Shown here: positions 2,819-58,798 of the stretch, in pieces
Position numbering within the stretch: position 1 is the first letter of the stretch
Layout: each line of letters starts with the position of its first letter
Source: a virus
Length of the DNA stretch: 64,000 nucleotides
Virus record (IMG/VR): IMGVR_UViG_3300047388_000429
Location: 6,426 to 70,425 of that record
Direction: 5' to 3' (one strand)
The notes under the pieces: model-generated
The model's database searches: none
Told to the model about the DNA's origin: nothing
The model's input: only the letters and a program-made list of their open reading frames with translations
Program-made: the position numbers and the translations under genes

Positions 2819-3943
2819 ATGTCCACAGAACTTACCATCATTTCCATCCAAAATCCGTTGCAGGTATTCAGTACCCCGAACGGCCTAGATTCGATCATCG
2901 ATAAGATCGAAGCCGATGCCAAGAGCATCGATCGCGATATAAGCACCGAGGCTGGCCGCGATAACATTCGATCGCTGGCCTTCAAGCTCGCAAAATCAAA
3001 GACCTTCCTAGACAAAATGGGAAAAGACCTCACCGAAGAACAGCGCGCGCAGATCGCGGTCGTGAACGCCGAACGCAAGCGCGCGTGGGAACGCATGGAG
3101 GCCCTGCAGGAAGAGATCAGGAAGCCGCTGACAGAATGGGAGAACAGGGATAAACTGCGAATTCAGGCCCATGAAGATGCACTTCTGAAGATCGTCGACA
3201 ACGCCCTATTCATGCATGGATTGTCCGGAATATTCTATAATCCAGATAGCGGAACCATAAAATATCGGATTAATAAAATTCCAGAACTTATGAACCGCGA
3301 ATGGGAAGAATTTTCGGCGCGCGCAATTCAAAAGGCTGATGAGACGAGATTAAAACTCGATTCCTTGTATGACGATGTTCTTAAAAAAGAAGCGGACGCC
3401 GCAGAACTCGCCCGCCTTCGTGCCGAAGAAGAGGCACGCCAGCGTCGTGAACATGACGAACGAGTGGCCGCCGAGGCCACCCGCGCAGCAGAGGAAAAAG
3501 CCGCTCGCGATGCCGAGATAGAGCGCCAGCGGGTAGAAAAAGAACTGCATGATGCCGCAGATCGCCAGCGCCAGATCGAGGAAAAGGCGTTACGCGATAA
3601 AGCCGATGCAGAGGCCGCTCTTGCCGCCGCCGAAAAGAAAGCCGCAGACGATGCCGCGGCCGCAGCCAAGGCGCTCAAGGACGCCCAAGAGAAGGCGGAG
3701 CGCGACAAGCAGGCCGCGTTGAAAAAACAGCAAGACGATGCCGCGGCCGCTAAGGCCGCCGAAGACGCGGCGACGCGCAAGAGGGAGGCGGATCAGGCGC
3801 ATAAGAAGAAGATCAATAATGAGGCCATGACATGTATTCAGGCCGTAATTGACGAAGCTACTCGGCAGGGAGAAGATCCTGCAAAAATGATCATCATAGC
3901 CATAGCGAAAGGAGTGATAAACCATGTTAAAATTAGCTATTAG
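2819..3943 (+). CDS. Coiled-coil phage protein (common upstream of phage recombination genes)
   Basis: 374 aa, Ala/Glu/Lys-rich heptads, GAGGA RBS. Confidence 0.75.
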   Translation: MSTELTIISIQNPLQVFSTPNGLDSIIDKIEADAKSIDRDISTEAGRDNIRSLAFKLAKSKTFLDKMGKDLTEEQRAQIAVVNAERKRAWERMEALQEEIRKPLTEWENRDKLRIQAHEDALLKIVDNALFMHGLSGIFYNPDSGTIKYRINKIPELMNREWEEFSARAIQKADETRLKLDSLYDDVLKKEADAAELARLRAEEEARQRREHDERVAAEATRAAEEKAARDAEIERQRVEKELHDAADRQRQIEEKALRDKADAEAALAAAEKKAADDAAAAAKALKDAQEKAERDKQAALKKQQDDAAAAKAAEDAATRKREADQAHKKKINNEAMTCIQAVIDEATRQGEDPAKMIIIAIAKGVINHVKISY

Positions 3944-6581: not shown

Positions 6582-6760
6582 TCGACGTCGACAACTGGCA
6601 TTGGCCCCAATGGGGATGGGTGATCGGGGATTTTACAGTCCTTGTACTCTACGCCTTTGTCCACGGCAGAAAAATCAAGGAAAGATATAATTTCTTTGGG
6701 CGACTCGCGACCGTTGGAATGAATATTTATATTCTTGTACAGGGAGGATTTTTTAAATGA
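6578..6760 (+). CDS. Small membrane protein
   Basis: ATGA overlaps at both ends. Confidence 0.55.
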   Translation: MIDVDNWHWPQWGWVIGDFTVLVLYAFVHGRKIKERYNFFGRLATVGMNIYILVQGGFFK

Positions 6761-7968
6761 AGTATATCCATGAAGGCACGAAACACCCGATAAAGGCTTG
6801 GGTCGATCACGTTCCGATCGAGGACGTGGCATTGCAGCAGCTTAAGAACATCGCTGATCTCCCCTTCATTTACAAACACGTCGCGGTGATGCCGGACGTC
6901 CACTGGGGCATGGGAGCCACGGTCGGGAGCGTTATCGCCACGAAGGGCGCGATCTGTCCAGCCGCCGTCGGGGTGGATATCGGTTGCGGGATGATGGCCG
7001 TTAAGACGACGCTCACGGCTTCGCAGTTGCCGGAGAACCTGCAGGCGATCCGAAGCGAGATCGAGAAGGCGGTCCCGCACGGGAGGACCAACAACGGGGG
7101 AACCGGTGATCGCGGGGCCTGGCATGATATTCCGGATGAAGCAGCTGAAATCTGGGCGAATCAATTCGCTGATCGCTATGACCAGATCGTTGAAGGCCAC
7201 CAGAAGGCCCGCGCATATAATTCAGTCAATCATCTGGGTACCCTCGGAAGCGGCAATCACTTCATAGAATTATGCTTGGATACCGAACAGAACGTGTGGA
7301 TCATGCTTCACAGCGGCAGCCGCGGGCTCGGGAACAAGATCGGCATGTATTTCATCGAGCGCGCGCAGAATGAATGTGAGAAGTATTTTATCAACCTGCC
7401 GGATAAGGATCTGGCTTATCTTGTCGACGACACTCCGCTGTTCAGAGACTATGTTCTGGCCGTCGAAATGGCGCAGGAATTCGCGTATGCCAATCGTGGC
7501 CTGATGATGAAGAACGTGCTGGCGGCGATCCGCAAGCACATTCCGAACCTCAGGGTCACCGATATGGCGGTCAACTGTCACCACAACTATATTGCAAGGG
7601 AGGCCCATTTTGGACAAAACGTCATCGTCACCAGAAAGGGAGCTGTACGAGCGCGTGCGACAGACCTTGGAATCATTCCAGGCTCCATGGGGGCTAAGTC
7701 CTTCATCGTCCGCGGAAAGGGAAATGTTGATTCGTTCTGTTCATGCAGCCATGGTGCCGGTCGCGTGATGTCCCGCGGGCAGGCAAAGAAGCTGATTAGC
7801 ATGGAGGACCATATTCGCGATACCGCTGGCGTCGAATGTCGGAAGGACGCTGATGTCATCGACGAGAGCCCGAAGGCTTATAAGGATATTGAAAAAGTAA
7901 TGCTTTCGCAGGCTGATTTGGTTGAAATAGTATATGAACTCAAGCAGATCCTTTGCATTAAGGGGTAA
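6757..7968 (+). CDS. rtcB: RtcB RNA ligase
   Basis: MPDVH, VGVDIGCG, GTLGSGNHFIE, HSGSRG, HHNY, RKGA, PGSMG, SHGAGR motifs. Confidence 0.96.
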   Translation: MKYIHEGTKHPIKAWVDHVPIEDVALQQLKNIADLPFIYKHVAVMPDVHWGMGATVGSVIATKGAICPAAVGVDIGCGMMAVKTTLTASQLPENLQAIRSEIEKAVPHGRTNNGGTGDRGAWHDIPDEAAEIWANQFADRYDQIVEGHQKARAYNSVNHLGTLGSGNHFIELCLDTEQNVWIMLHSGSRGLGNKIGMYFIERAQNECEKYFINLPDKDLAYLVDDTPLFRDYVLAVEMAQEFAYANRGLMMKNVLAAIRKHIPNLRVTDMAVNCHHNYIAREAHFGQNVIVTRKGAVRARATDLGIIPGSMGAKSFIVRGKGNVDSFCSCSHGAGRVMSRGQAKKLISMEDHIRDTAGVECRKDADVIDESPKAYKDIEKVMLSQADLVEIVYELKQILCIKG

Positions 7969-13997: not shown

Positions 13998-14214
13998 ATT
14001 TATCTCCTATTTTTGCAATTTCGATCTGGGCCGCCACCTTCTGATTATCAGCTGCCGCCGTATATTCTGCCTTGCAGGCCGCTTCTCCGCTTTTAAAAAC
14101 ATGATGATGATACAAGAGCGCAGCCGTCGCGATGGCCGCGCAACATCCGAGCGTCAACCAGGTTGAAGTTGAAATGCCGACCGCGTCTTCCGCAACTTCA
14201 GTGACGATACCCAT
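13882..14214 (-). CDS. i-spanin (Rz-like)
   Basis: N-terminal TM plus helical region, directly after the endolysin. Confidence 0.7.
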   Translation of the reverse strand: MGIVTEVAEDAVGISTSTWLTLGCCAAIATAALLYHHHVFKSGEAACKAEYTAAADNQKVAAQIEIAKIGDKYAIINEKLHESPIFMRPVSPLVGAAISGMPQPHPNRAK

Positions 14215-14723
14215 TAGGAGCCCAATCCTTTCAAGCAAGCATTCATTTGTTCTTCTCGGCGCGTGACGATCCCGTAACAGTTATTTGCTTTTACACGGCA
14301 ATCTTTCCCAGCGACATAAACCCATCGAGGGAACTGTCGGCATGCGCCCGCAATATCGCCGGATTTAATGAGCCTGAGCATCGTTGATTTTTTAAAATTT
14401 CCCGCGCCGGCATTGAAGACTTCATCGACAAATACCTTTTTTGTCTCCGGCGGGATCTTCGCACCACCCGTCAGAAAATCCACAGTGGCAATCGCATTGA
14501 CGGTATCACTGTGCAAAAATTCCTTGCATTGCTCATCCGTGGCGACGTCGCCTTCTTTCACACCATCGGTGTGACCGGAGCATATCGTGTAAATACCGCC
14601 GGTATCTTTGTAAGCGTGGTGAACTATACCTTCGTGAGGTCTAATAAAATTCATGCAGCAGATGACGAATGCTGCGCTGGTGCCCGCTGCGATCTTGGAA
14701 AGACGTGGATTATTTCCCATCAC
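14214..14723 (-). CDS. Endolysin, GH24 lysozyme, probable SAR type
   Basis: HEG...AYKDTGGIYTICSGHT (E-D-T triad); weakly hydrophobic N-terminus. Confidence 0.9.
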   Translation of the reverse strand: MMGNNPRLSKIAAGTSAAFVICCMNFIRPHEGIVHHAYKDTGGIYTICSGHTDGVKEGDVATDEQCKEFLHSDTVNAIATVDFLTGGAKIPPETKKVFVDEVFNAGAGNFKKSTMLRLIKSGDIAGACRQFPRWVYVAGKDCRVKANNCYGIVTRREEQMNACLKGLGS

Positions 14724-14769
14724 CTTCCTCCAAAATAATCGCCGAGGGGACTGCCCTCGGCGATCAATG

Positions 14770-15018
14770 TCAGGCGCCCGTTACCTCTGTGGCAACTTCT
14801 GTCGCAGTTGTCTCCACCGTTTTTTCAACAGTTTCTGCGCCGGCCGCGACCGTAGTTTCGACGGCCGTTACTTCGATTTCTTTCTTTTCGACCGCAGCCT
14901 TTTCGTGCGCCAACAGCGCATCGATCTTGGCGTGAGCCTCAGCAAGGACAGCCTCGATTTCAGCCTTGAGATGTTCGCCTGCGGTTTCGACTTTTGTTAT
15001 CAGGTCTTGTAGGCTCAT
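14770..15018 (-). CDS. Hypothetical acidic protein
   Basis: AAGGA RBS; hairpin downstream. Confidence 0.6.
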   Translation of the reverse strand: MSLQDLITKVETAGEHLKAEIEAVLAEAHAKIDALLAHEKAAVEKKEIEVTAVETTVAAGAETVEKTVETTATEVATEVTGA

Positions 15019-15075
15019 GATCTATTTTCCTTTTTAAGATTTAAGACTTTGGTTTGTAGATTCGCGAGCTCCATC

Positions 15076-15477
15076 CTACGCTGCTGCGGAGGCAGACGCT
15101 GTATCTGTGCCATTGCCGTTTTGATCTCCCGCTGGACTGGCTACCACCGGAGGCGCTGATACCGCTACCTGAATAGCGGAAAGAACTCCGTTCGTTACCG
15201 CCTGTGCGATTACATTGGCGTCCTGATCAGTGATATCGATATTCAGAGACAGCGCCTGCGCCTTGATAAGCACGGCCGCCGATTGAATGGCCGCCTGCGG
15301 CTGTTGTCCGCCAGCGATGGTCGCGAGCGCCAACGTCGTCGGCTCAGTGAGATCAAGGGCGGAAAATTTGGTGACCAGGCCATTGAGCATCTCAATGTTG
15401 GCCTGCAGCAACGTATAAAGAGACGGGGCCGGTGCCTTGAAGAGCGGGATGACTTTATCGACTAAAGCAGTGGACAT
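15076..15477 (-). CDS. Hypothetical protein
   Basis: AAGGAAG RBS, 133 aa. Confidence 0.6.
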   Translation of the reverse strand: MSTALVDKVIPLFKAPAPSLYTLLQANIEMLNGLVTKFSALDLTEPTTLALATIAGGQQPQAAIQSAAVLIKAQALSLNIDITDQDANVIAQAVTNGVLSAIQVAVSAPPVVASPAGDQNGNGTDTASASAAA

Positions 15478-15559
15478 ATTACTTCCTTTCAGATTTTGAA
15501 TCCGCGGGGATGCGGTAAAAGAATCATGGCAGATATTTTTTTATTGCACAATCGAAAAG

Positions 15560-15633
15560 TGGTTCTGGGGGCACGGATCGAACGTGCATTACCTGATTCA
15601 AAGTCAGGGGGCCTACCATTAGCCGACCCCAGA
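15560..15633 (-). tRNA. tRNA-Gln(UUG)
   Basis: CCTGA-CT TTG AA-TCAGG arm, TTCGA T-loop, CCA. Confidence 0.92.
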
Positions 15634-15638
15634 AAAAG

Positions 15639-15711
15639 TGGGTTGTGCGCGGGATTTGAACCCGATACGCCGAGTCACAATCGGCTGCTTTGCCGTTAAG
15701 CTACGCACAAA
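15639..15711 (-). tRNA. tRNA-His(GUG), 4-bp T-stem
   Basis: GCCGA-TT GTG AC-TCGGC; C73-CCA. Confidence 0.85.
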
Positions 15712-15713
15712 CT

Positions 15714-15787
15714 TGGCAGAGGGCCTGTGAATCGAACACAGATTAGCCGTTTTGGAGGCGGCGAGCTTGCCATTAGCAGAGCCCTCT
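15714..15787 (-). tRNA. tRNA-Trp(CCA)
   Basis: GCCGC-CT CCA AA-ACGGC; G73-CCA. Confidence 0.88.
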
Positions 15788-15801
15788 AAATTGGTCGGCG
15801 A

Positions 15802-16209
15802 TCACTTGCCGTGTTTTAAATATTTCTCCCGTCGTACTCTCTGTTGTTTTTCCTTAGTCCATGTACTCCACTCATCTCTACGCCTTCCCGAGCGGGCAGC
15901 GTCCCTTTCTCCCTTAGACGCATAGAGTTGATTAGGCTTCGAAGCCGCAGAACAGTTGCAACTCAAATGCGAGAACGCGATGTTTTCTAGGTCAAAGAAA
16001 GATGCCAAAGGATCAGCCGCTCCCATCCATGCCTCCTTGTGCTCGATGGACATATCCGACGAAGATATGATCTCATTTTGACACCTGAAACACTTGTTAA
16101 GGCCAGCTTTACACACTAGTGAGAAAAGAACATTCTTTCTCAGTTTATGTGTGGCAGTACCTATGGGCATCCCGAGTAAGGACGCTTTCTTGTCGTTATG
16201 TTTGCTCAT
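15802..16209 (-). CDS. HNH-like endonuclease inserted at the 3' end of tRNA-Pro
   Basis: CFRC...SIEH...NIAFSHLSCN; GGAGG RBS. Confidence 0.75.
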   Translation of the reverse strand: MSKHNDKKASLLGMPIGTATHKLRKNVLFSLVCKAGLNKCFRCQNEIISSSDMSIEHKEAWMGAADPLASFFDLENIAFSHLSCNCSAASKPNQLYASKGERDAARSGRRRDEWSTWTKEKQQRVRREKYLKHGK

Positions 16210-16243
16210 CGTTTACCTCCGTATTTAATGTTGCAAACGAATG

Positions 16244-16319
16244 TCGGTACGGCAGGATTTGAACCTGCGATCCTCTGGTCCCAAGCCAGATGGGGACGGC
16301 CAGACTCCCCTACGTACCG
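16244..16319 (-). tRNA. tRNA-Pro(UGG), no encoded CCA
   Basis: TCTGG-CT TGG GA-CCAGA; C1:G72, A73. Confidence 0.9.
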
Positions 16320-16326
16320 TTTATTT

Positions 16327-16403
16327 TGGTGGGCCGCCTCGGACTTGAACCGAGAGAAAGCTTGTTCCTAAGACAAGTGCGTCTGCCATTCCGCCAGCAG
16401 CCC
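16327..16403 (-). tRNA. tRNA-Leu(UAG), short variable region
   Basis: CTTGT-CT TAG GA-ACAAG; Leu-type D arm; A73-CCA. Confidence 0.88.
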
Positions 16404-16404
16404 A

Positions 16405-16487
16405 TGGTGCGAGTAATCAGAATCGAACTGATACGCCGAAGCGAGCGATTTTAAGTCGCTTGCGTCTACCTATTCCGCCATACTCGC
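16405..16487 (-). tRNA. tRNA-Leu(UAA)
   Basis: AGCGA-CT TAA AA-TCGCT; variable arm; CCA. Confidence 0.92.
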
Positions 16488-16512
16488 TTATAAAATTCTC
16501 CTTTCGCGCAAT

Positions 16513-16544
16513 AAAAAAACCCCGCCTTGTTTAGGGGCGGGGTT
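16513..16544 (-). terminator. Attenuator terminator 3 (upstream of the Leu-Leu-Pro-Trp-His-Gln block)
   Basis: AACCCCGCC-CCTAAACAA-GGCGGGG followed by TTTTTTT. Confidence 0.88.
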
Positions 16545-16570
16545 CAGAGCTTTCGCACTCTTACCGTATA

Positions 16571-16642
16571 TTACCGCCCAAGCATAAAGGCTCCCAGTGG
16601 GAGTTGCTGTAAATGCCAGGGCTGTAACAAATTCTTTTTCAT
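16571..16642 (-). CDS. Leader peptide 3, MKKNLLQPWHLQQLPLGAFMLGR
   Basis: Codons 5-16 are only L/Q/P/W/H, matching the downstream tRNAs; stop 26 nt before the terminator. Confidence 0.85.
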   Translation of the reverse strand: MKKNLLQPWHLQQLPLGAFMLGR

Positions 16643-16648
16643 TGTTTT

Positions 16649-16677
16649 ACAATATGATGATTCTTTGAGAATTGCAA
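16649..16677 (-). promoter_or_regulatory. Sigma70-like promoter giving a leaderless leader-3 transcript
   Basis: TTGCAA-17 nt-TATTGT-6 nt-ATG. Confidence 0.7.
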
Positions 16678-16683
16678 GAGAAA

Positions 16684-16759
16684 TGGTCCGTCCAGAGAGA
16701 CTCGAACTCCCAGCCTGAAACTTAGAAGGTTCCTGCTCTTCCAATTGAGCTATGGACGG
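16684..16759 (-). tRNA. tRNA-Arg(UCU)
   Basis: GGAAC-CT TCT AA-GTTTC; CCA. Confidence 0.92.
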
Positions 16760-16760
16760 A

Positions 16761-16849
16761 TGGTGCATGGGGATGGATTTGAACCACCGATGTTAACCCA
16801 AAGGGACCTGATCTACAGTCAGGCGCATTCGCCGCTCTGCCACCCATGC
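16761..16849 (-). tRNA. tRNA-Tyr(GUA)
   Basis: CCTGA-CT GTA GA-TCAGG; long variable arm; CCA. Confidence 0.92.
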
Positions 16850-16858
16850 GTTATCTTT

Positions 16859-16947
16859 TGGCGGATGCTGAAGGGGTCGAACCTTCGTGAGCCAGCGAGG
16901 CTCCGCAGTTTAGCAAACTGCTCGTTTTACCATTCACGCAAGCATCC
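16859..16947 (-). tRNA. tRNA-Ser(GCU)
   Basis: GCAGT-TT GCT AA-ACTGC; long variable arm; G73. Confidence 0.92.
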
Positions 16948-16955
16948 AGAAAAAT

Positions 16956-17043
16956 TGGCGGAGGGTAAAGGAGTCGAACCATCAGCGCATTCAAGGCTGG
17001 CGACAGTTTTCAAGACTGTTTGTCCCCGCGGACGCTACCCTCC
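16956..17043 (-). tRNA. tRNA-Ser(UGA), probable 8/4 fold
   Basis: ACAGT-CT TGA AA-ACTGT; acceptor GGAGGGTA/TACCCTCC (8 bp). Confidence 0.85.
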
Positions 17044-17117
17044 GGACTCACGAACCGGACTCGAACCGGCATAAGCGATTTTGCAGACCGCTGCATAACC
17101 TTTCTGACCACCGCGAG
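17044..17117 (-). tRNA. tRNA-Cys(GCA)
   Basis: GCGGT-CT GCA AA-ATCGC; U73; ends in CC and abuts G1 of tRNA-Ser. Confidence 0.85.
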
Positions 17118-17123
17118 AGAAAT

Positions 17124-17205
17124 TGGCACGCCCGACAGGAGTTGAACCTGCATCTTCCATCCGATTACCTTTGTCGGCGTTCGTAGCACCGAGGGTTACG
17201 GGCGT
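17124..17205 (-). tRNA. Rearranged tRNA-Arg(ACG) lacking a conventional D arm
   Basis: Acceptor ACGCCCG/CGGGCGT-G-CCA and canonical T arm; anticodon arm CGGTG-CT ACG AA-CGCCG comes right after the acceptor 5' strand. Confidence 0.7.
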
Positions 17206-17206
17206 A

Positions 17207-17282
17207 TGGTACGACGAACCGGAGTCGAACCGGCACCCTGCGGGTCCGGAACCCACCGCTCTTCCAGTTGAGCTTCCGTCGT
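17207..17282 (-). tRNA. tRNA-Arg(CCG)
   Basis: GTGGG-TT CCG GA-CCCGC; CCA. Confidence 0.9.
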
Positions 17283-17286
17283 AAAT

Positions 17287-17361
17287 TGGCGATCCTTGGG
17301 GGTGCTGCCCCCCCGACCTCCGCCGTGACAAGGCGGCGCTCTGCCGTTGAGCTAAAGGACC
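17287..17361 (-). tRNA. tRNA-Asp(GUC) with atypical T-loop
   Basis: CCGCC-TT GTC AC-GGCGG; T-loop GGCAGCA; G73. Confidence 0.85.
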
Positions 17362-17367
17362 ATGAAT

Positions 17368-17454
17368 TGGTGCCAGCCACAGGATTCGAACCTGCGATGA
17401 TCTTGCGATGACGGTTTACAAAACCGTTGCCTTCAACCACTCGGCAAAGCTGGC
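17368..17454 (-). tRNA. tRNA-Thr(UGU) with long variable arm
   Basis: ACGGT-TT TGT AA-ACCGT; G1:C72, C2:G71. Confidence 0.82.
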
Positions 17455-17789
17455 AATTTTATTATTCCAGCGTGAACTTTACGATGACAATTAGAGCAAA
17501 GAACAACGCACTTCTTTAATTCTTTTTCAACTTTTTTAAGAGAATGATTTGTAAAATTACTGATATTTATATTCATATCTTTTTTCTTTGGATCTAGATG
17601 ATGGAAGTCCAAACAATAAGGTTCTTTCTCTCCGCAAACCTTACATTTAAGTTTTTTCTTCATCTCTCTAAATTCTAACCGTCGTCTTTTTCTCCACGCA
17701 TTATTCAATTCCATGCGACGTTTTTTATTACGTGGATACCAGATTTCCCGATGGTATTTGGCGATTTCGCCTTTTGTTTTGTAACTCAT
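17433..17789 (-). CDS. HNH endonuclease within the tRNA array
   Basis: CKVCG...LDFHH...CVVLCSNCHRKVH; stop lies inside the tRNA-Thr D-loop. Confidence 0.8.
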   Translation of the reverse strand: MSYKTKGEIAKYHREIWYPRNKKRRMELNNAWRKRRRLEFREMKKKLKCKVCGEKEPYCLDFHHLDPKKKDMNINISNFTNHSLKKVEKELKKCVVLCSNCHRKVHAGIIKLPALPSG

Positions 17790-17818
17790 AAAAACACTAT
17801 ATAGCATGTTACAAAAAT

Positions 17819-17897
17819 TGGTAGCAGAGATCGGATTCGAACCGATGATAACAGCGTTATGAGCACCGTGCTTTGGGCCAGACTAAGCTACTCTGCG
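17819..17897 (-). tRNA. tRNA-Met(CAU), elongator-like (Ile2 not excluded)
   Basis: CGGTG-CT CAT AA-CGCTG; G2:C71, C3:G70; C11:G24; C1xU72 mismatch. Confidence 0.82.
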
Positions 17898-17903
17898 TCA
17901 ATT

Positions 17904-17978
17904 TGGTGCGCTGGCAGGGAGTTGAACCCTGTCCTCAAGCTTGGAAGGCTCGCATGCACCCACCAACAACTCCAGCGC
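17904..17978 (-). tRNA. tRNA-Gly(UCC)
   Basis: CGAGC-CT TCC AA-GCTTG; weak D stem; A73. Confidence 0.82.
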
Positions 17979-17985
17979 ATTATCT

Positions 17986-18060
17986 TGGCGGGGAACTGTG
18001 GAATTGAACCACATACGCGCGGACCTTCAAACCGCCGCTCTACCGATGAGCTAGATCCCC
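17986..18060 (-). tRNA. tRNA-Phe(GAA)
   Basis: GCGGT-TT GAA GG-TCCGC (U31xU39); G73. Confidence 0.82.
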
Positions 18061-18126
18061 AAAGTTAAACACGCGGCCGTGTGAGTTTCGGCTCTTACAC
18101 CATCGTGGCAGACGGGTTGCGTGAAT

Positions 18127-18202
18127 TGGCTCCCGAGAGTGGACTCGAACCACTGACAACTTGATTAACAGTCAAGGACTCTACCAACTGAGCTACTCGG
18201 AA
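18127..18202 (-). tRNA. tRNA-Asn(GUU)
   Basis: CTTGA-CT GTT AA-TCAAG; G73-CCA. Confidence 0.93.
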
Positions 18203-18213
18203 TAATTTTTATT

Positions 18214-18299
18214 TGGCCGGCGGGGCAGGACTTGAACCTGCGACCTCTTCATCCAGTGCGCATGGCATGAAGCGCTCTAACCAACTGAGCTACCCGCCG
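18214..18299 (-). tRNA. tRNA-like RNA with elongated anticodon arm, identity undetermined
   Basis: Canonical acceptor, D and T arms and CCA, but 16 nt (TGCCATGCGCACTGGA) replace the 7-nt anticodon loop. Confidence 0.75.
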
Positions 18300-18331
18300 A
18301 AAAATCATCATATCAACAATGTTCAATAACC

Positions 18332-18366
18332 AAAACAAAAACCCCGCTTCTTTTAGGAGCGGGGCT
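18332..18366 (-). terminator. Attenuator terminator 2 (upstream of the 14-gene tRNA block)
   Basis: AGCCCCGCTCCT-AAA-AGAAGCGGGG followed by TTTTTGTTTT. Confidence 0.85.
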
Positions 18367-18393
18367 TTGTGTTTTTAACAGGGAGAAAAAGAT

Positions 18394-18468
18394 TTACACA
18401 AATAGCCCCTCGCCGCTTCTTCCGAAGCCGCGGTCATAGGACATATTTGATGTGCATATCGTTTTCAT
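18394..18468 (-). CDS. Leader peptide 2, MKTICTSNMSYDRGFGRSGEGLFV
   Basis: Codons 5-19 use only C/T/S/N/M/Y/D/R/G/F, which are all ten amino acids of the downstream block. Confidence 0.85.
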   Translation of the reverse strand: MKTICTSNMSYDRGFGRSGEGLFV

Positions 18469-18474
18469 TCTTTC

Positions 18475-18503
18475 AGTATCTATCAGATTCGCTAAAAAGT
18501 CAA
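18475..18503 (-). promoter_or_regulatory. Sigma70-like promoter giving a leaderless leader-2 transcript
   Basis: TTGACT-17 nt-GATACT-6 nt-ATG. Confidence 0.7.
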
Positions 18504-18504
18504 A

Positions 18505-18578
18505 TGGTACTCGGTGAAGGAATCGAACCATCGTCAACTGCATGTAAGGCAGCCACTCTCCCATTGAGCTAACCGAGC
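18505..18578 (-). tRNA. tRNA-Val(UAC)
   Basis: GCTGC-CT TAC AT-GCAGT; CCA. Confidence 0.9.
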
Positions 18579-18628
18579 ACATCCGGCGCAGCGATTGTTT
18601 GGGCCATGACAGTCGCTGCGCCGAAACT

Positions 18629-18705
18629 TGGTGGACCCTGCGAGAATCGAACTCGCCTCAGTCTGCTTGCAAAGCAGTCTCGCCCCCCTTGGTACATGAG
18701 AGCCC
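18629..18705 (-). tRNA. tRNA-Ala(UGC)
   Basis: CTGC-TT TGC AA-GCAG; G3:U70; atypical D arm. Confidence 0.85.
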
Positions 18706-18712
18706 ACATATT

Positions 18713-18787
18713 TGGTCGGTGCGATGGGAATTGAACCCATTTTATACGCCTTAAAAGGGCGCTGCCTGACCGGCCGGCTCCGCACCG
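18713..18787 (-). tRNA. tRNA-Lys(UUU)
   Basis: GCGCC-CT TTT AA-GGCGT; CCA. Confidence 0.88.
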
Positions 18788-18791
18788 TAAT

Positions 18792-18866
18792 TGGTTGAGG
18801 CGAAGGGAATCGAACCCCACGTCTAACGGTTATCAACCGCTTGCACTGCCATTGTGCTACACCTCA
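18792..18866 (-). tRNA. tRNA-Ile(GAU)
   Basis: AGCGG-TT GAT AA-CCGTT; CCA. Confidence 0.9.
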
Positions 18867-18890
18867 GAAATCTGTTTCCTCCCGCATAAT

Positions 18891-18916
18891 AAAAAACCCG
18901 CCTTTGTGGGGCGGGT
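18891..18916 (-). terminator. Attenuator terminator 1 (upstream of the Ile-Lys-Ala-Val block)
   Basis: ACCCGCC-CCACAAA-GGCGGG followed by TTTTTT. Confidence 0.85.
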
Positions 18917-18944
18917 GCAAAATTCAAGACGAATTTGACCAGCC

Positions 18945-18998
18945 CTATTTGTCGGGTTTAATCGCTTTCGCCACAATCTTTACAGTCTCTCGTCTCAT
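18945..18998 (-). CDS. Leader peptide 1, MRRETVKIVAKAIKPDK
   Basis: GAGGA RBS; codons 6-14 are only V/K/I/A, matching the downstream tRNAs; too short to appear in the ORF track. Confidence 0.85.
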   Translation of the reverse strand: MRRETVKIVAKAIKPDK

Positions 18999-19016
18999 CT
19001 CGTTCTTCCTCTACTT

Positions 19017-19090
19017 TGGCGCGGCCAACGGGAATTGAACCCGTGTTGTCCGATTGAAAGTCGGCTTTCCTGCCGTTAGAAGATGGCCGC
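19017..19090 (-). tRNA. tRNA-Glu(UUC)
   Basis: CCGA-CT TTC AA-TCGG; G73-CCA. Confidence 0.9.
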
Positions 19091-19187
19091 TTAAAGTAGG
19101 CTAAGCCATCTGTATTTTTCAGGGGTTTGCTACGCTGGCCCCCTGCGGCCTCTGTACGTCCCAAACCGTTAAGTGAGGGACCAAAAT

Positions 19188-19262
19188 TGGTTGCGAAGCT
19201 TGGAATTGAACCAAGTACCTGCTGCTTATGAGGCAGCCGAGCTACCGATGCTCTACTCCGCG
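19188..19262 (-). tRNA. Initiator-like tRNA-fMet(CAU)
   Basis: C1xA72, A11:U24, CAT anticodon; anticodon stem GCTGC/GCAGC. Confidence 0.85.
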
Positions 19263-19268
19263 ATTTTC

Positions 19269-19297
19269 ACTTTATAGGAGTTGTAATTTTATTTCAA
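19269..19297 (-). promoter_or_regulatory. Sigma70-like promoter at the head of the tRNA array
   Basis: TTGAAA-17 nt-TAAAGT, 6 nt before tRNA-fMet. Confidence 0.7.
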
Positions 19298-19306
19298 GAG
19301 AAAAGT

Positions 19307-19729
19307 TTAGGCGAGCACGCGCGCGGCCGCGGCCTCGAAAACCGCCTCTTCATACCAGAACGGCAACGCCGAATCGGGACACGTCCCTTGTTCATGAAGG
19401 ACAATCGCTTGTGTCAAGCGAATCAGGTTGTCGGGGACTTCGATATCAAAATAATCCGTTTGATCGACGCCGCAATGACGGCAAACATCAAGGACACAGA
19501 CAGCGGCCTTGTCCGGCGAGGAATAACGAGCAATAAAAGCCGCGATGTGCTCGAGGTCATCTTTTCGCTGAAAAGATAAAAGAGTTTTCATGAGCGCGGC
19601 GATTCCGCTGACGGGGCTATCAAAACGAATTAACCTTGGATCATCTTGCAGCGTGCTTTGGGCTACGCATGCTCTCCCATTGTGCTCGAGCTTGCCAGGA
19701 TTGTTGAGAATGATAGACCACGGTGTCAT
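19307..19729 (-). CDS. Putative lysozyme-like virion/lysis protein
   Basis: NNPG motif, F.SP..GI.A, AI..HEQG. Confidence 0.55.
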   Translation of the reverse strand: MTPWSIILNNPGKLEHNGRACVAQSTLQDDPRLIRFDSPVSGIAALMKTLLSFQRKDDLEHIAAFIARYSSPDKAAVCVLDVCRHCGVDQTDYFDIEVPDNLIRLTQAIVLHEQGTCPDSALPFWYEEAVFEAAAARVLA

Positions 19730-19974
19730 CTATGGCCTCCCTCGAGCCATGCCAGGACCAGCGTCCATGCCGTTGAAAAGACTCCCATGACGCCGGTTCC
19801 TATCCACATGATTTTTTGATGGCGCTCGACCTTTGGTTTTATTTCTTTGATGGCCGCCTGAGCGACGGCGAGATCAGACGTTAACTTTGGAATAGTAGAT
19901 GTATTTTTTTCAATGTTGCTTACGCTGCTCTGCAGCTGGCCTAGGACTCTAAATATTTCATCATTGCTCGACAT
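19726..19974 (-). CDS. Holin-like or other membrane protein
   Basis: Coiled coil plus C-terminal TM segment. Confidence 0.5.
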   Translation of the reverse strand: MSSNDEIFRVLGQLQSSVSNIEKNTSTIPKLTSDLAVAQAAIKEIKPKVERHQKIMWIGTGVMGVFSTAWTLVLAWLEGGHR

Positions 19975-19975
19975 G

Positions 19976-20344
19976 TCACGGCACCGTCAGTTGTTTCCTA
20001 AAAACTATTTGACCAGGTGAAAGAAGCATATCTGCATTTGAAACCGTATAAACATTTCCGATCGGTGAAGTTATTGTCGGCTCCCATTTATAGGTTCCGG
20101 TGACCAGATCAACGGTTTGCGTTCTCAGGATTTTAAATTGAAATGCTCCCCTGTTCGTCGTCTGATTGGGGATGGTAACGGTATGATCACCAGTCGTGTA
20201 TGTCGCAATAATTGAACCGTCTAAATTAAAAAGCTCGACCTTGATCGTGTAACCCGTCAAATCGATTAAAGAATTATCGCTTCTGTTCCTGACCAAGGAC
20301 TGAATGGGGATGTCATTATTGGTGATCGCTGAAAAGTTCAACAT
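19976..20344 (-). CDS. Ig-like virion accessory protein
   Basis: IDLTGYT...GTYKWE pattern; tail region. Confidence 0.5.
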   Translation of the reverse strand: MLNFSAITNNDIPIQSLVRNRSDNSLIDLTGYTIKVELFNLDGSIIATYTTGDHTVTIPNQTTNRGAFQFKILRTQTVDLVTGTYKWEPTITSPIGNVYTVSNADMLLSPGQIVFRKQLTVP

Positions 20345-20356
20345 TTTTTTATGATA

Positions 20357-21352
20357 TTAGTCATCTATTATTCCGTCAAGTTTTACTTGGTCGGCGACGC
20401 TTCCGGATACATCGACCTGTTCTTCGATGATCCCGTCTCCATCAAACTCTGGCAGAGCGGAACCAAAATTATTAATGAGGTCTGAGACCATGCCCTCAGA
20501 CAAGATATTATTCTGAATATAACCGTTAACGATTAAATAAACGACGATGGCCTGCGCGCCGACTGCAGTCATCATATCCGACTGCTCGACCATCGATCCA
20601 GCGGCACTGAATTTAAGGACGGCAGATGCGTTCATCAAATCGGGGTTTTCAATCATCGTCCCTTGGACAAAGATCGGGCCGATACCAACTCCCTGCATTA
20701 AATCGTGCTGCTCGACGACGGCCATGGACGCAGAGAATGTCAGGATACCGGCACCGGAAGATACGTCATGACCTTCCGATATCGACGCCGATCCGATAAA
20801 TTTCTGGACAACGGATCCACCCATGATATCAGGTCTTTCCGTGGCCGCCATGGACCCCGAGAACTTCAAAACGGAATGGCCGGCCGCGATATCATGACGC
20901 TCAATGGACGCCATTGATGCCCTGATATCGAGCTCCGCGACACCGCCCATGGTGTCATGTCTTTCATGAGCCGCCGCCGATCCTTTGAAGGTCAGGACCC
21001 CTGCAATGCTCGATGAATCATGGCGTTCTGTTGCGGCCCCAGAGGCTTTAAAACTCAACACGCCAGCGGCATTAGATGAGTCATGCCGCTCCGTAGAATT
21101 CATGGCCGCGGAAAATTTCAAGACGCCTGTTATGTTTGAAGAATCGTGCCTTTCCGTCGGAGAACCGCTTGCGCGGAAAGAAAGGACACCAGACGCAGAC
21201 ATGGAATCATGGCGTTCGACTGCGGCCGCAGCCGCCGAGAATGTAAGGACCCCCGCTATCGATGATGTATCGTGACGCTCTGTGGCGGCAATTGCCCCAC
21301 TATTTGATGCCGCAGTTCGGGGAACACCAAAAAGACCTAGCCGTGTGGCCAT
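20357..21352 (-). CDS. Repeat-rich virion protein (~21-aa ERHD repeats)
   Basis: About a dozen E(R)HDxxxxGVLxF units. Confidence 0.7.
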   Translation of the reverse strand: MATRLGLFGVPRTAASNSGAIAATERHDTSSIAGVLTFSAAAAAVERHDSMSASGVLSFRASGSPTERHDSSNITGVLKFSAAMNSTERHDSSNAAGVLSFKASGAATERHDSSSIAGVLTFKGSAAAHERHDTMGGVAELDIRASMASIERHDIAAGHSVLKFSGSMAATERPDIMGGSVVQKFIGSASISEGHDVSSGAGILTFSASMAVVEQHDLMQGVGIGPIFVQGTMIENPDLMNASAVLKFSAAGSMVEQSDMMTAVGAQAIVVYLIVNGYIQNNILSEGMVSDLINNFGSALPEFDGDGIIEEQVDVSGSVADQVKLDGIIDD

Positions 21353-48644: not shown

Positions 48645-49889
48645 TCACATGAACCACCCATTTTTCTTCTTGATCAGGGGAGCAAGCGCGTATCGGCAGG
48701 CGTCGATCCCGTGGTCATATTTTGATATTATGTCCGGAAGCACATCGCGTGTCAATCTGTCGATCTTATACCGGTACGATCTCATTTCCTGAATAAGGTT
48801 AACGCAGCGCGGGTGGATCACGATATTGTAGCTCTTCATGATCGTGATCCCGTCCTCGACGCTCCCGCTCCATTTCTCTGCGGCCTCGATGTCGAACCCG
48901 CGGGCCTTGAGGTGCGCGATCGTCTCCGGCCGCGAGCAGTCGGCGCGTATTTTGTATCTCCGCGAGTCCGGAATCTTATCGTACATCTTCGGCATGTCGT
49001 CGAGCATGACGCCAATACCATATTCTTCATATTCGATGTAGAGATTCCTGTCCTTGATCCAGACCTTGACCAGCGTGTTCGGGTCCTGCGAGAACCCGAA
49101 GTCGGCCCCGAAGTACGGGCCATCCCAGTCCGGCTCGGGGGTAAAGCTCTCGACGCGATAACAGCCGGAGAAGATGATCGCGTCCGTGCGCCCGACCTCG
49201 ACTCCCATGTAGACGTGGGCGTGCTTCTCCGGCCGGTCTTTCTCCATGGCCGCCGCGTCCTTCAGGAATTGCGGGCCCAGCCATTCCGGCGGCGACTGCT
49301 TGTAATTGCTCTGGTGGACCAGCCGCGAGGGGTCGACGCGACGCGCCTCCTCGTTGATCCACGCGAAGGGCTCGGCCGGCGGGTTGTAGGTCACGAATTC
49401 CGTGAACACGGTGCCCCCACGGAGAACCGAGATCCGGACGCTCTCCATTTCCTCGAGATCCGTGTACTCCGCCCCTTCCTCGAACCACAGATATTTCAAA
49501 TACCCCTTTTTGGTCTTCACGGATTTCATCTTCTGCGCGTCGTCGAGGCCGCGGAGCATGATCTTCTGGCCGGTCGGCAGATACGTGATCTCGTCGTCGC
49601 TCTTGTGGGTCTTGAAGAACAAGGACCATCCGAGCTTGTCTATCGCCCACTCGAAGGTCGGGCGCACACTGTCCTTCAGGGACGCCGCGGTCTTTCTGAA
49701 AGCGATGCCGTTCGCCAGCGGGTCCTCGACTATCCCCTTCACGATCTCGATGGCCGTGAACGAGGACTTCAAGGACCCACGGCCGCCGCGCAGCCAGAAC
49801 GAAGAATAGACGTTAGCGCGTATCGCGTTGTGGACCCCGTAAAACGCGGGACCGATCAGGTCCGTGAGCTGGACACCATCACTCGACAT
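48645..49889 (-). CDS. terL: Terminase large subunit (PBSX-type)
   Basis: GGRGSLKS, WFEE, TYNP, DFGFSQDP, DH.IDA.RY. Confidence 0.93.
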   Translation of the reverse strand: MSSDGVQLTDLIGPAFYGVHNAIRANVYSSFWLRGGRGSLKSSFTAIEIVKGIVEDPLANGIAFRKTAASLKDSVRPTFEWAIDKLGWSLFFKTHKSDDEITYLPTGQKIMLRGLDDAQKMKSVKTKKGYLKYLWFEEGAEYTDLEEMESVRISVLRGGTVFTEFVTYNPPAEPFAWINEEARRVDPSRLVHQSNYKQSPPEWLGPQFLKDAAAMEKDRPEKHAHVYMGVEVGRTDAIIFSGCYRVESFTPEPDWDGPYFGADFGFSQDPNTLVKVWIKDRNLYIEYEEYGIGVMLDDMPKMYDKIPDSRRYKIRADCSRPETIAHLKARGFDIEAAEKWSGSVEDGITIMKSYNIVIHPRCVNLIQEMRSYRYKIDRLTRDVLPDIISKYDHGIDACRYALAPLIKKKNGWFM

Positions 49890-50285: not shown

Positions 50286-51867
50286 CTACGCTCCGGCCTC
50301 TACGATTTGATTCTTGACCGCCAATCCTTTGTTGTACGCGCGGACGAGGACGGCGACCATCCCGCGGGCTGTCGAGTCCGCCTGGCTCCCGTAATTCGGA
50401 TCGCAGGCGCGGCGCTTGAACAGCGCATGATTGTTTTTAAGGATTTCGGCGCGACGAGTCGTATCTTTGAACCTGAACTCGTTTTCGTTCATGTCACCTG
50501 ACCACACACAGATCGGCCACGGTTTTCAGGAGCGCCGCCGTGATCATCCCGAAATACTTGTTTCCCGCGGCGTCCACGAATTGAATGTCCACGGTGTCGT
50601 TGCCCGCACAGGTCCCGTTGCGGACGATCACCGCTTTTTGTAGCGACACTTCGCTGAACCCTTCTCCGCCGCGGGTTCCGTTCCGGTAATCCGGTGCGAC
50701 CTCGGAGCTCTCGCAGATCTGGATGTCGATGCAGTTCGTTCCCATGTTATTCCTTCTCGCCGCTGAGTTCGCTGATCTTTTGACGGAGATCCACGTTCTC
50801 TGATTCATAGACACCGTTTTCGGTCTTAAGGTCCTCACATGATTTACGGAGGTCCGTGTTCTCCTGCGTCAGCTTGGCCTCCGTGGCCTCGAGGTCGGCG
50901 ACCTGCTTCTTCAGAGCAGCGAGTTCTTCCTGCAGGACCGTCGATTGTTTTTCCGGTCCGGCGCTCGCGCTTTGAATCATGGCGCTGCAAATAATATGCT
51001 CAGGCGTTCCGGCGCTGAATTTGTTTAGGCCGGCTTGAGCCAAGTGGACGGCAGCGTTCATGTCGATTTTTTTAGTCATGTTATTTTCCCTTCTAGGTTT
51101 ACAGTAAATAATTCAGCACATTGTGCAGACATCGGTTTGCTTTTTTCTTTCTGGGCGTTTGCCAAGACTTCAAGAGCATCCGCGAGGCGCCCGACGTTTT
51201 TGGTCAGCGAAAATATTTCGGTGAGCGCCGCCTTAAGAAGTGGCTTATCCGCTTCAGGTTGATCGCTGATAAGATAATAAATGAATTTATCAGTTTCCGT
51301 GAATTCAGTCATAATCACCTCTTTAGGTAAGCGGCTTCGAGATTGCTGATGCCGTCGAGCACCTTTTTGATCGTCGCTCGGTTACATTTGTCGAATTCAT
51401 AATAATTGTAGCCACATAGTTTGCGCAAACGCCGATTCCAAGAGTGCCAGCCTATCCGACATAGAAATTTCATTTTATCTCCACGCATGAATACGTTATT
51501 TCTCCGCCCATGATATCAGGGAGCGCTTCTTTGGCGGCGATGATGCCCGCTGAAAGACAGGTCGGCTGTGACTTGAAATCAGGAACCTGTGTAATAGCTA
51601 CGCCCGTATGAGTGGTTACGACAAGGATCAAGGTCCAATGGATCATTTCTGCCCCCGCAGGTGGCCGTTATAACGCTTCGGAAGCTGATAAACGTCGGCG
51701 CGAACCGGCTCCGGCGGCCGTTTTATCTCGGGGGCGGTCGCTAAAACCCTAAAAATGCCGTTTTCTCGATAAAAAACGGCCGTAAAATCGGATCCACGCG
51801 CGAAATCCGCGGATATTGTCGGTATTCTTGCCGATTCTTCGATGCAATTCCCTGTTATTTTGCTCAT
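50286..51867 (-). other. Small hypothetical genes (50286..50507, 50494..50745, 50747..51079, 51076..51318, 51643..51867 and shorter ones)
   Basis: Co-oriented, coupled ORFs. Confidence 0.55.
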
Positions 51868-58237: not shown

Positions 58238-58798
58238 ATGCTGTCTCCTGCACAAAAGCGCGCTCAACTAAAATATCGCTCCTCTGAAAAAGGAATCGCT
58301 ACTCGCAATAATTACGAGAAAAGTAAAAAAGGCAGAGAACTTGCAAGCCGGAGAAGAAACAAACCTGCGGCGAAAATATACATGAAAAAGTACATGCAAA
58401 AATATCAACGAGATCCAGAAAATATAAAAAATAAAAGACGTTGGACTTTTAGCTGGGAGGGAAAAGCTTTTCAGCTTTTACAAGGGATGCGAGAAAGCAC
58501 AAGACGTAAAAATCTTGGAAAGATAGAGTGGACATCTTCTGAAATATTGGAAAAAATAAAAGATAAAAGATGCTGCAAAACTGGAATTGACTTTACCTTG
58601 CAAGATGAAAATACCCCGCCACATACAAGAAATCCGTTCGCTCCGAGTCCAGATAGAATCGATAATAATAAGGGATATACGAAGAAAAACGTTCAGTGGG
58701 TTTGCTGGATGTACAATCAAATGAAAGGACAGGCCACAGAAAAAGAAATTAAAAAGTTTCTAACCGCTATTAACAATTTCACAGGAGAAAAGATATGA
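58238..58798 (+). CDS. HNH-like endonuclease
   Basis: SPDRIDNNKGY...NVQWVC..YN.MK; AT-rich. Confidence 0.75.
   Translation: MLSPAQKRAQLKYRSSEKGIATRNNYEKSKKGRELASRRRNKPAAKIYMKKYMQKYQRDPENIKNKRRWTFSWEGKAFQLLQGMRESTRRKNLGKIEWTSSEILEKIKDKRCCKTGIDFTLQDENTPPHTRNPFAPSPDRIDNNKGYTKKNVQWVCWMYNQMKGQATEKEIKKFLTAINNFTGEKI

Follow-up and report, generated by a model that had tools for sequence, protein, structure and literature searches.

A candidate leader-peptide attenuator sampling ten amino acids ahead of a phage tRNA gene block

The segment considered here, positions 18503-18332 on the minus strand of a 64,000-nucleotide (nt) stretch of viral DNA (hereafter the window; positions 6,426 to 70,425 of IMG/VR record IMGVR_UViG_3300047388_000429), lies ahead of a block of 14 transfer RNA (tRNA) genes, and its sequence features make it likely that it is a ribosome-mediated transcription attenuator of the trp/his/ilv type that controls tRNA genes and not biosynthetic genes. 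Its small open reading frame (ORF), here called leader 2, contains a run of codons for exactly the ten amino acids of the tRNAs behind it, and is the second of three leaders in one tRNA array (leaders 1, 2 and 3, followed by blocks 1, 2 and 3). A leader-peptide attenuator had been proposed in a preliminary description of the same DNA, and that reading is supported by a homologous leader in a second IMG/VR record, G001, in which the composition is kept, and by the recurrence of the device within the array and in four cultured phages.

What tRNA genes do for the phages that have them has long been asked, the usual answers being the matching of codon usage and the replacement of tRNAs destroyed by host defences. 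A sensor placed before tRNA genes would reveal the phage's own criterion, namely the slow decoding of those particular codons. If the reading is true, leader-peptide attenuation would be extended from amino-acid and synthetase genes to tRNA genes, and to a ten-amino-acid sensor built of scattered single codons, and a complete tRNA set for 20 amino acids would prove divisible into independently gated cassettes.

Correspondence between leaders and tRNA blocks

The tRNA array spans 19262-15560 on the minus strand. Twenty-three of its genes are called by ARAGORN, or 24 at a relaxed setting; Rfam contributes one more (Asp), and an Arg(ACG)-like gene was detected by eye and folding only. Three gaps divide the array; in each there is a small ORF, and behind it a GC-rich stem with a U-run. 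Met and Glu tRNAs precede leader 1, and with these included the blocks cover all 20 amino acids. Block 2 consists, in order, of an odd tRNA, Asn, Phe, Gly, Met, an HNH ORF, Thr, Asp, Arg-CCG, Arg-ACG-like, Cys, Ser-UGA, Ser-GCU, Tyr and Arg-UCU, its tRNAs representing ten amino acids (Asn, Phe, Gly, Met, Thr, Asp, Arg, Cys, Ser and Tyr). The Asp gene scores 51 bits against Rfam, with its anticodon set by alignment to the ARAGORN-called Asp of G001, and Ser-UGA is called by ARAGORN at the relaxed setting only.

The 15 codons listed in the preliminary description are exactly codons 5-19 of leader 2, and they do sample all ten amino acids of the block: three are for Ser, three for Gly and two for Arg, with one each for Cys, Thr, Asn, Met, Tyr, Asp and Phe, and the full set is already present in the eleven codons 5-15. 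Also borne out are the presence in this sensor stretch of both Ser boxes and two Arg boxes, and its lack of a CGG codon despite the tRNA-Arg(CCG) gene in the block. The match that had been drawn between an Arg box and the anticodon ACG stands in part, as the codon CGC is present but its only matching gene is the non-canonical Arg(ACG)-like one. Because G001 lacks tRNA-Arg(CCG), the window's copy may have been acquired recently and not yet be sensed. By standard wobble, the block's own anticodons read 12 of the 15 sensor codons.

In the six-frame translation of the window, a 15-codon stretch that is limited to these ten amino acids and holds all of them occurs once, at leader 2, and the analytic probability of such a stretch is 2.7e-7 per position. 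The patterns of leaders 1 and 3 are also each unique in the window, and are sharper than that of leader 2. When tRNA labels were shuffled along the array, a run of at least 15 was reached in 107 of 200,000 trials for G001, and the runs observed for the three leaders were reached jointly in none of 200,000, in the window and in G001 alike. Furthermore, each of nine leaders (three from the window, three from G001 and three from the cultured phage XM05) fits its own block and neither of the other two.

The capsid protein of G001 is 80% identical to that of the window, and the record carries all three leaders. Between the two versions of leader 2, conservation is seen in the first four codons, in the final part and in the spacer that follows the terminator, but the sensor has diverged, with 16 base changes, one added codon and the replacement of seven of the 15 aligned residues. 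All eight new residues in the G001 sensor belong to the set, all ten amino acids are kept, and the run there is 16 codons long; Cys and Asn stand at opposite ends of the sensor in the two genomes. In random substitution at the density seen in G001, a sensor wholly within the set was kept in 0.14% of trials, and one that also had all ten amino acids in about 0.003%. The sole indel within the ORF is one whole codon, and the frame is kept. The composition that the preliminary description expected homologous leaders to conserve is therefore retained in G001, in a changed order, and the pattern of substitution argues that leader 2 is selected for composition in a fixed reading frame, not for sequence. 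Leader 3 is reshuffled likewise relative to G001, and leader 1 is almost unchanged.

Nine cultured tRNA arrays were scanned, each small ORF in a gap of the array being scored against the amino acids of the 1-16 tRNAs that come next. The sample was non-random, six arrays being tRNA-similarity matches and three being matches to the array of XM05, and because of how the arrays were picked the four positive phages are partly related. Clear matches were found in four phages of Alphaproteobacteria, CcrKarma, Lacusarx, XM05 and vB_EliS-L02, with amino-acid groupings unlike those of the window (Table 1), and leader composition therefore tracks block content across lineages. The tRNAs that follow gp083 of CcrKarma are for exactly its amino acids (Pro, Pro, Thr, Lys, Lys, three Leu, Ala and three Ser). 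No leader-block match was found among the 205 small ORFs of Amme-3 (56), Minot (67), pf16 (42), phiPMW (22) and OneUp (18), where the best corrected P was 0.047. Label shuffles reached the observed best P in none of 300 trials for the window, G001, XM05, vB_EliS-L02 and CcrKarma and in two of 300 for Lacusarx, as against 97 to 300 of 300 for the negative arrays Amme-3, Minot and pf16. A stem and U-run follow most of the cultured-phage leaders; in the third leaders of XM05, vB_EliS-L02 and Lacusarx the stem is strong but no U-run comes after it. Taken together with the sister leaders, the homologue and the cultured-phage cases, the correspondence between leader and block is, as a property of the sequences, real and far beyond chance.

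The CcrKarma gene gp083 is filed in GenBank as a hypothetical protein, and such leaders are thus already present in databases as ordinary small genes.

Predicted folding and the proposed mechanism

The ATG of leader 2 lies 6 nt after the -10 hexamer of a candidate promoter, and because of this short distance the messenger RNA (mRNA) would probably be leaderless. No Shine-Dalgarno sequence is found at leaders 2 and 3 in either genome. The -35 hexamer begins 35-36 nt ahead of the ATG at leaders 2 and 3 of both genomes, and the same spacing of the ATG from a consensus -35 is found in the third leaders of XM05, vB_EliS-L02 and Lacusarx.

For folding, transcript positions were numbered from the ATG and a 28-nt ribosome mask was shifted codon by codon. 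The full-length minimum-energy fold (-53.4 kcal/mol) pairs nt 13-31 with nt 60-74 and includes the terminator, and the same arrangement is predicted for G001. In a transcript that ends before the 3' arm of the terminator, nt 60-73 are predicted to pair with nt 97-108, an antiterminator that holds the first 4-6 of the seven bases of the 5' arm. Two structures noted in the preliminary description are recovered among these predictions, namely the pairing of the ORF end with the terminator 5' arm (nt 60-65 and 68-73 with nt 97-108) and the GCTTC-GGAA-GAAGC hairpin (nt 41-54). The inner hairpin of the ORF is possibly a polymerase pause hairpin, and in G001 it is predicted in the same place (nt 36-59) from other sequence.

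In masked folding of the transcript before its 3' arm is made, an A site anywhere on codons 2-16 in the window, or 2-17 in G001, leaves the antiterminator in place; from codon 17 in the window or 19 in G001 up to the stop it disappears, and the 5' arm is free when the ribosome is at the stop. Leaders 1 and 3 are predicted to switch like leader 2, the change in leader 1 coming right after its last sensor codon. Comparison of leader 2 with G001 yields both-sided changes, two of which preserve the terminator stem and one the antiterminator, and a stem and U-run are present in all six leaders of the window and G001.

In the proposed mechanism, a short and probably leaderless mRNA would start at or near the ATG at 18468. 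If all aminoacyl-tRNAs for the 24 codons were plentiful, the ribosome would reach the stop and cover region 2 (18409-18396), the terminator hairpin (18364-18342) would form, and polymerase would halt at the U-run before the 14 tRNA genes of block 2. If any of the ten amino-acid or tRNA supplies ran short, the ribosome would stall at about codons 5-16, leaving region 2 free to pair with 18372-18361 and tie up the terminator 5' arm, and read-through would allow the whole block to be made. Where there is no translation, region 1 would pair with region 2, and the default would be termination. The net logic would be that of a ten-input OR gate with negative feedback, because the tRNA products would relieve the stall, and leaders 1-3 together would split a tRNA set for 20 amino acids into separately gated cassettes.

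We infer translation of the ORF, stalling, termination, read-through and the physiological trigger from the DNA sequence; the trigger could be cleavage or loss of host tRNAs during infection, or demand outrunning supply. The preliminary description had inferred that the leader would sense severe tRNA loss and not mild starvation. The genome also carries a gene for an RtcB tRNA ligase, which was counted as context for the attenuator reading.

Table 1. Coordinates of the leader 2 region, its neighbours and matching leaders in cultured phages. Positions are those of the window unless another sequence is named; nt, transcript position from the ATG.
Feature	Sequence	Position	Strand	Description	Corrected P
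Candidate leader 2 promoter	window	18475-18503	minus	-35 at 18503-18498, 17-nt spacer, -10 at 18480-18475; 9 of 12 consensus matches	
Leader ORF 2	window	18468-18394	minus	24 codons and TAA; ATG at 18468, stop at 18396-18394	
Sensor stretch, codons 5-19	window	18412-18456	minus	confined to the ten block 2 amino acids, with every one present	
Region 1	window	18438-18456 (nt 13-31)	minus	predicted to pair with region 2 when the ribosome is absent	
Inner hairpin	window	18411-18432 (nt 37-58)	minus	inside the ORF; predicted in every fold that leaves it unmasked	
Region 2, antiterminator 5' strand	window	18396-18409	minus	last four codons and first base of the stop; predicted to pair with nt 97-108 if unmasked	
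Region 3, antiterminator 3' strand	window	18361-18372	minus	overlaps the first four bases of the terminator 5' arm	
Predicted intrinsic terminator	window	18332-18364	minus	5' arm 18364-18358, 9-nt loop, 3' arm 18348-18342, U-run 18341-18332; 7-bp stem	
Spacer, terminator to first tRNA	window	18300-18331	minus	nearly identical in G001; last 14 nt are the inverted partner of 16652-16665	
Block 2, genes behind the leader 2 terminator	window	16684-18299	minus	14 tRNA genes and HNH ORF	
HNH ORF inside block 2	window	17433-17807	minus		
Sister leader 1 and terminator	window	18880-18998	minus	nine sensor codons from Ile/Lys/Ala/Val, before those four tRNAs	
Sister leader 3 and terminator	window	16505-16642	minus	twelve sensor codons from Leu/Gln/Pro/Trp/His, before Leu, Leu, Pro, Trp, His, Gln	
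RtcB tRNA ligase gene	window	6757-7968	plus	same genome as the array	
Nicotinamide phosphoribosyltransferase gene	window	58795-60393	plus		
CcrKarma gp083	JX100811.1	49065-49202 (locus L120, 6219-6356)		32-codon run of Ala/Lys/Leu/Pro/Ser/Thr; annotated terminator (49270-49294) after it	1e-10
CcrKarma second leader	JX100811.1	from 51466		annotated terminator (51596-51622), then Phe/Val/Ile/Gln/Arg tRNAs	7e-5
Lacusarx leader	KY629563.1	from 68710		before Lys/Gly/Asp/Glu/Arg/Phe tRNAs	9e-6
Lacusarx leader	KY629563.1	from 70037		before Ser/Leu/Thr/His/Gln/Cys/Trp tRNAs	5e-4 (scored against the first two, Ser and Leu, only)
vB_EliS-L02 leader	OL955261.1	from 74032		before Ser, Tyr, Leu, Leu, Thr, His, Gln, Gln, Ser, Cys, Trp; run of 19, 8 of 8 amino acids	1e-7
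vB_EliS-L02 leaders	OL955261.1	from 72501 and 70928		match their own blocks	3e-4 and 1e-2
XM05 leaders	PV416404.1	from 2302, 1247 and 151820	minus	match their own blocks	4e-3, 1e-4 and 2e-2

Objections, rival explanations and known systems

A number of observations weigh against the attenuator reading. As regards composition, three of the 15 sensor codons (TCC, and GGC twice) require non-standard U34:C reading by the block tRNAs, the Arg(ACG)-like gene (17121-17205, minus strand) receives no call from ARAGORN or Rfam, and shuffling of the tRNA labels along the window's array gives a run of at least 15 in 1,440 of 200,000 trials. The composition of leader 2 taken alone is modest (18 of 23 residues in the set, P = 5e-3), because the ten-amino-acid set represents half of amino-acid usage, and the sole homologue of leader 2 that was found is that of G001. 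Promoter-like sites are not enriched in the region, where they number eight as compared to 4.8 +/- 2.5 in shuffles, and the promoter scan flagged none at the G001 leader 2, where only the -35 hexamer is kept.

Further such points come from folding. The antiterminator takes in just 4-6 of the seven bases of the terminator 5' arm, and the leaders 3 fall outside a strict rule that the arm be free at the stop. Dinucleotide shuffling of the upstream part also reproduces the on/off behaviour, in 15 of 300 trials for the window and 20 of 300 for G001, and folding is thus supportive, not decisive. Because a transcript without a ribosome that ends before the 3' arm already favours the antiterminator, default termination would depend on the pairing of regions 1 and 2 forming first. 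A simple terminator scanner flagged the hairpin in the plus-strand reading only, and not in the minus-strand reading (7 bp, 9-nt loop). Finally, the earlier view that codons 5-19 constitute the signal agrees with masked folding for codons up to about 16, but stalls at codons 17-19 would mask region 2; because a ribosome there covers the antiterminator strand, these codons are perhaps silent, and only codons up to about 16 may signal.

Among the rival explanations, the most durable retains the ORF as a real translated sensor and has as its output Rho access, RNase processing or the stability of the tRNA precursor in place of intrinsic termination. It would be served by the strong hairpins without a U-run in the third leaders of XM05, vB_EliS-L02 and Lacusarx, by the conserved inverted repeat around block 2, which could form a processing stem, and by the overlap of the antiterminator with part of the terminator arm only. 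Nevertheless, both genomes have a GC-rich stem and U-run at this position, the stem is kept through two both-sided changes, and stem and U-run recur in all six leaders of the two genomes, and this alternative is considered unlikely.

A good deal less probable again is that the product of the ORF is a small protein with its own function, or that the RNA is untranslated and binds tRNAs directly in the manner of a T-box, even though small phage peptides are common and T-box leaders likewise link tRNA status to a terminator. Seven of the 15 aligned sensor residues differ from G001 with composition alone kept, and this turnover, unlike that of a folded or binding peptide, disfavours a peptide with its own function. 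As to an RNA acting alone, no T-box or other leader family reaches the Rfam threshold, the best matches being chance-level terminator matches, and the indels keep the reading frame. Least credible of all is that the region is a mere block 1 terminator and block 2 promoter with a small ORF by chance. Internal promoters and terminators are frequent in tRNA arrays, the folding switch alone appears in 5-7% of shuffles, and a set of ten amino acids is large; yet the pattern is seen only once in six frames, the three leaders jointly are matched in 0 of 200,000 label shuffles, the composition survives 16 base changes and a codon insertion, and four cultured phages show the pattern while five others lack it.

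Leader peptides of enterobacterial operons can be multivalent, as in thr (Thr and Ile) and ilvGMEDA (Ile, Leu and Val), and are also found at trp, his, leu and phe. To our knowledge, described leader-peptide attenuators regulate amino-acid biosynthesis or synthetase genes; pheST, which encodes phenylalanyl-tRNA synthetase, is among the genes with such a leader. The attenuator proposed at leader 2 shares with the enterobacterial ones a short ORF rich in the relevant codons, a stop-proximal segment that would choose between antiterminator and terminator, and a GC stem and U-run ahead of the regulated genes; the predicted pairing of regions 1 and 2 may likewise provide a default-off state, depending on the order of folding. 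It differs in that it would regulate 14 tRNA genes and an HNH ORF, not enzymes, and in that it samples ten amino acids, mostly with one to three scattered codons each, whereas the enterobacterial leaders use runs of codons for one to three amino acids. Its mRNA is probably leaderless, unlike theirs, and its tRNA products would act on the sensor directly, giving a very short feedback loop. The pheST leader resembles it in applying attenuation to the translation machinery, but concerns a single amino acid and a protein product, with no tRNA gene. The proposed mechanism is that of classical leader-peptide attenuation, as described for pheL (PMC3082878). A Phe-rich leader at E. coli pheV/pheU was not supported in K-12, in which pheV has only about 105 nt ahead of it, lacking a Phe-rich ORF, and no annotation precedes pheU.

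T-box riboswitches also sense tRNA status and choose between a terminator and an antiterminator, but they bind one uncharged tRNA directly, have no need of a ribosome, and regulate synthetase or amino-acid genes; an Rfam search over 14000-21000, with E up to 1, gave no T-box match. The nearest published idea found, judging from the accessible portion of PMC8421152, is the stress-inducible long tRNA array of Anabaena PCC 7120, whose control is credited to conserved direct repeats in the promoter, over its -10 box and start site. As is proposed for the array described here, it comprises extra, normally silent tRNAs that come on when translation is impaired, and it is linked to a homing endonuclease and to rtcB, with which it is co-regulated (PMC8421152). 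It is, however, a bacterial element and not a phage, and in the text of PMC8421152 the terms 'attenuat', 'leader peptide' and 'terminator' occur 0 times. Full-text literature searches, with subscription journals and supplements outside their range, turned up no description of a leader peptide or attenuator placed ahead of tRNA genes, and 'attenuat' occurs 0 times in the accessible text of each of the genome papers of the phiCbK family (PMC3556154) and of Lacusarx (PMC5648845).

A broader proposition, which could equally well hold or fail, is that phage tRNA supply is modular and self-tuning. Each cassette would be gated by its own translated leader, which would report decodability codon by codon, and replacement tRNAs would be switched on, alongside the RtcB repair ligase, exactly when host defences or the infection destroy host tRNAs; leader 2 would then be the broadest natural attenuator known, and the device would be widespread, including in cultured phages of Caulobacter, Sphingobium and Erythrobacter. 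Cultured phages with genetically tractable hosts show the pattern, most notably the phiCbK-like CcrKarma, which infects Caulobacter crescentus, and the idea can be put to a direct test. Such leaders might also find use as small natural reporters of how abundant, or how fully charged, chosen tRNAs are.

Genome context and variation within the array

The virus record is complete (70,425 bp, with direct terminal repeats), and the window comprises most of it. The genome, described as that of a soil phage, carries myovirus-type structural genes, and its capsid protein is 43-46% identical to the capsids of cultured PB1-like and related myoviruses. RtcB is also found near the leader-gated arrays of XM05, vB_EliS-L02 and Lacusarx.

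There is no close relative among 50,697 GenBank phages. A capsid search gave G001 and a further record, G002, and a capsid profile gave 75 loci; a tRNA search in records G002 to G007 returned one sub-cut-off match in G002 and nothing in the other five. Two exact leader DNA patterns matched G001 only, and a degenerate leader pattern run against metagenome contigs yielded a single 1,868-bp contig, which was unrelated and without tRNAs and was rejected. A neighbouring 643-amino-acid protein gave three IMG/VR loci and no close relative (best 44% identity over about 50 residues). A 133-amino-acid protein adjoining the array has four relatives in a large protein collection; a profile of this protein matched nothing in metagenome or genome contigs, and G001 only in IMG/VR. 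An 8,484-bp NCBI contig that encodes an 86%-identical neighbour protein may carry a third leader 2.

Three soil-metagenome sequencing runs matched the window, and no RNA run did. One (X1) is identical to it and may be the source of this DNA, and a second (X2) has identical pieces. Pieces of diverged relatives in the third (X3) cover leaders 1 and 3 and several tRNAs, and none of the X3 pieces listed covers leader 2. One of the X3 pieces, a 6,779-nt contig with matches within window positions 15637-19110, carries the start of leader 1, in which a 10-nt stretch inside the sensor is replaced; the contig then jumps to tRNA-Val and later to tRNA-His. Its array is thus shorter than, and differently composed from, that of the window.

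The first gene after the leader 2 terminator (18214-18299, minus strand) is a tRNA-like RNA that scores 58 bits against the Rfam tRNA model; its anticodon arm is much lengthened and lacks a normal 7-nt anticodon loop, and ARAGORN assigns it no identity. This gene is missing from G001, where the spacer runs directly into tRNA-Asn. The Arg(ACG)-like gene folds as a cloverleaf in which the anticodon arm precedes a D-like arm. An Arg tRNA-like gene of G001 (locus L029, 2923-3006), which is UCU-like and scores 33.6 bits, has the same arm order, the anticodon arm coming right after the acceptor strand. Block 2 also has a second tRNA with a CAU anticodon (17819-17897), and codon 4 of leader 2 (18457-18459) is the rare Ile codon ATA in both genomes. 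If the second CAU tRNA is a lysidine-type tRNA-Ile, and not an elongator Met, ATA would be an eleventh sensed codon.

The position of the HNH-type endonuclease ORF differs between the genomes, being after Met in the window and after Asp in G001 (locus L029, about 2073-2490). Because the insertion sites differ, the two HNH ORFs are suggested to have been inserted independently, with no effect on the tRNA set or the leader. Another ORF (15802-16209) interrupts block 3 in the window only. On the opposite strand of leader 2, a 19-codon ORF (18320-18379, plus strand) runs from the conserved spacer through the terminator; its first four codons are kept in G001, probably just from the conservation of the DNA.

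An inverted repeat flanks block 2 in both genomes. Its arms in the window are 18300-18313 and 16652-16665 (14 nt, 93% complementary), and those in G001 are at 1515-1526 and 3406-3417 of locus L029 (12 nt, 100% complementary). One arm lies just ahead of the first tRNA and the other within the spacer of the leader 3 promoter, and the repeat could represent a long-range processing stem of the block 2 precursor or a shared protein-binding site.

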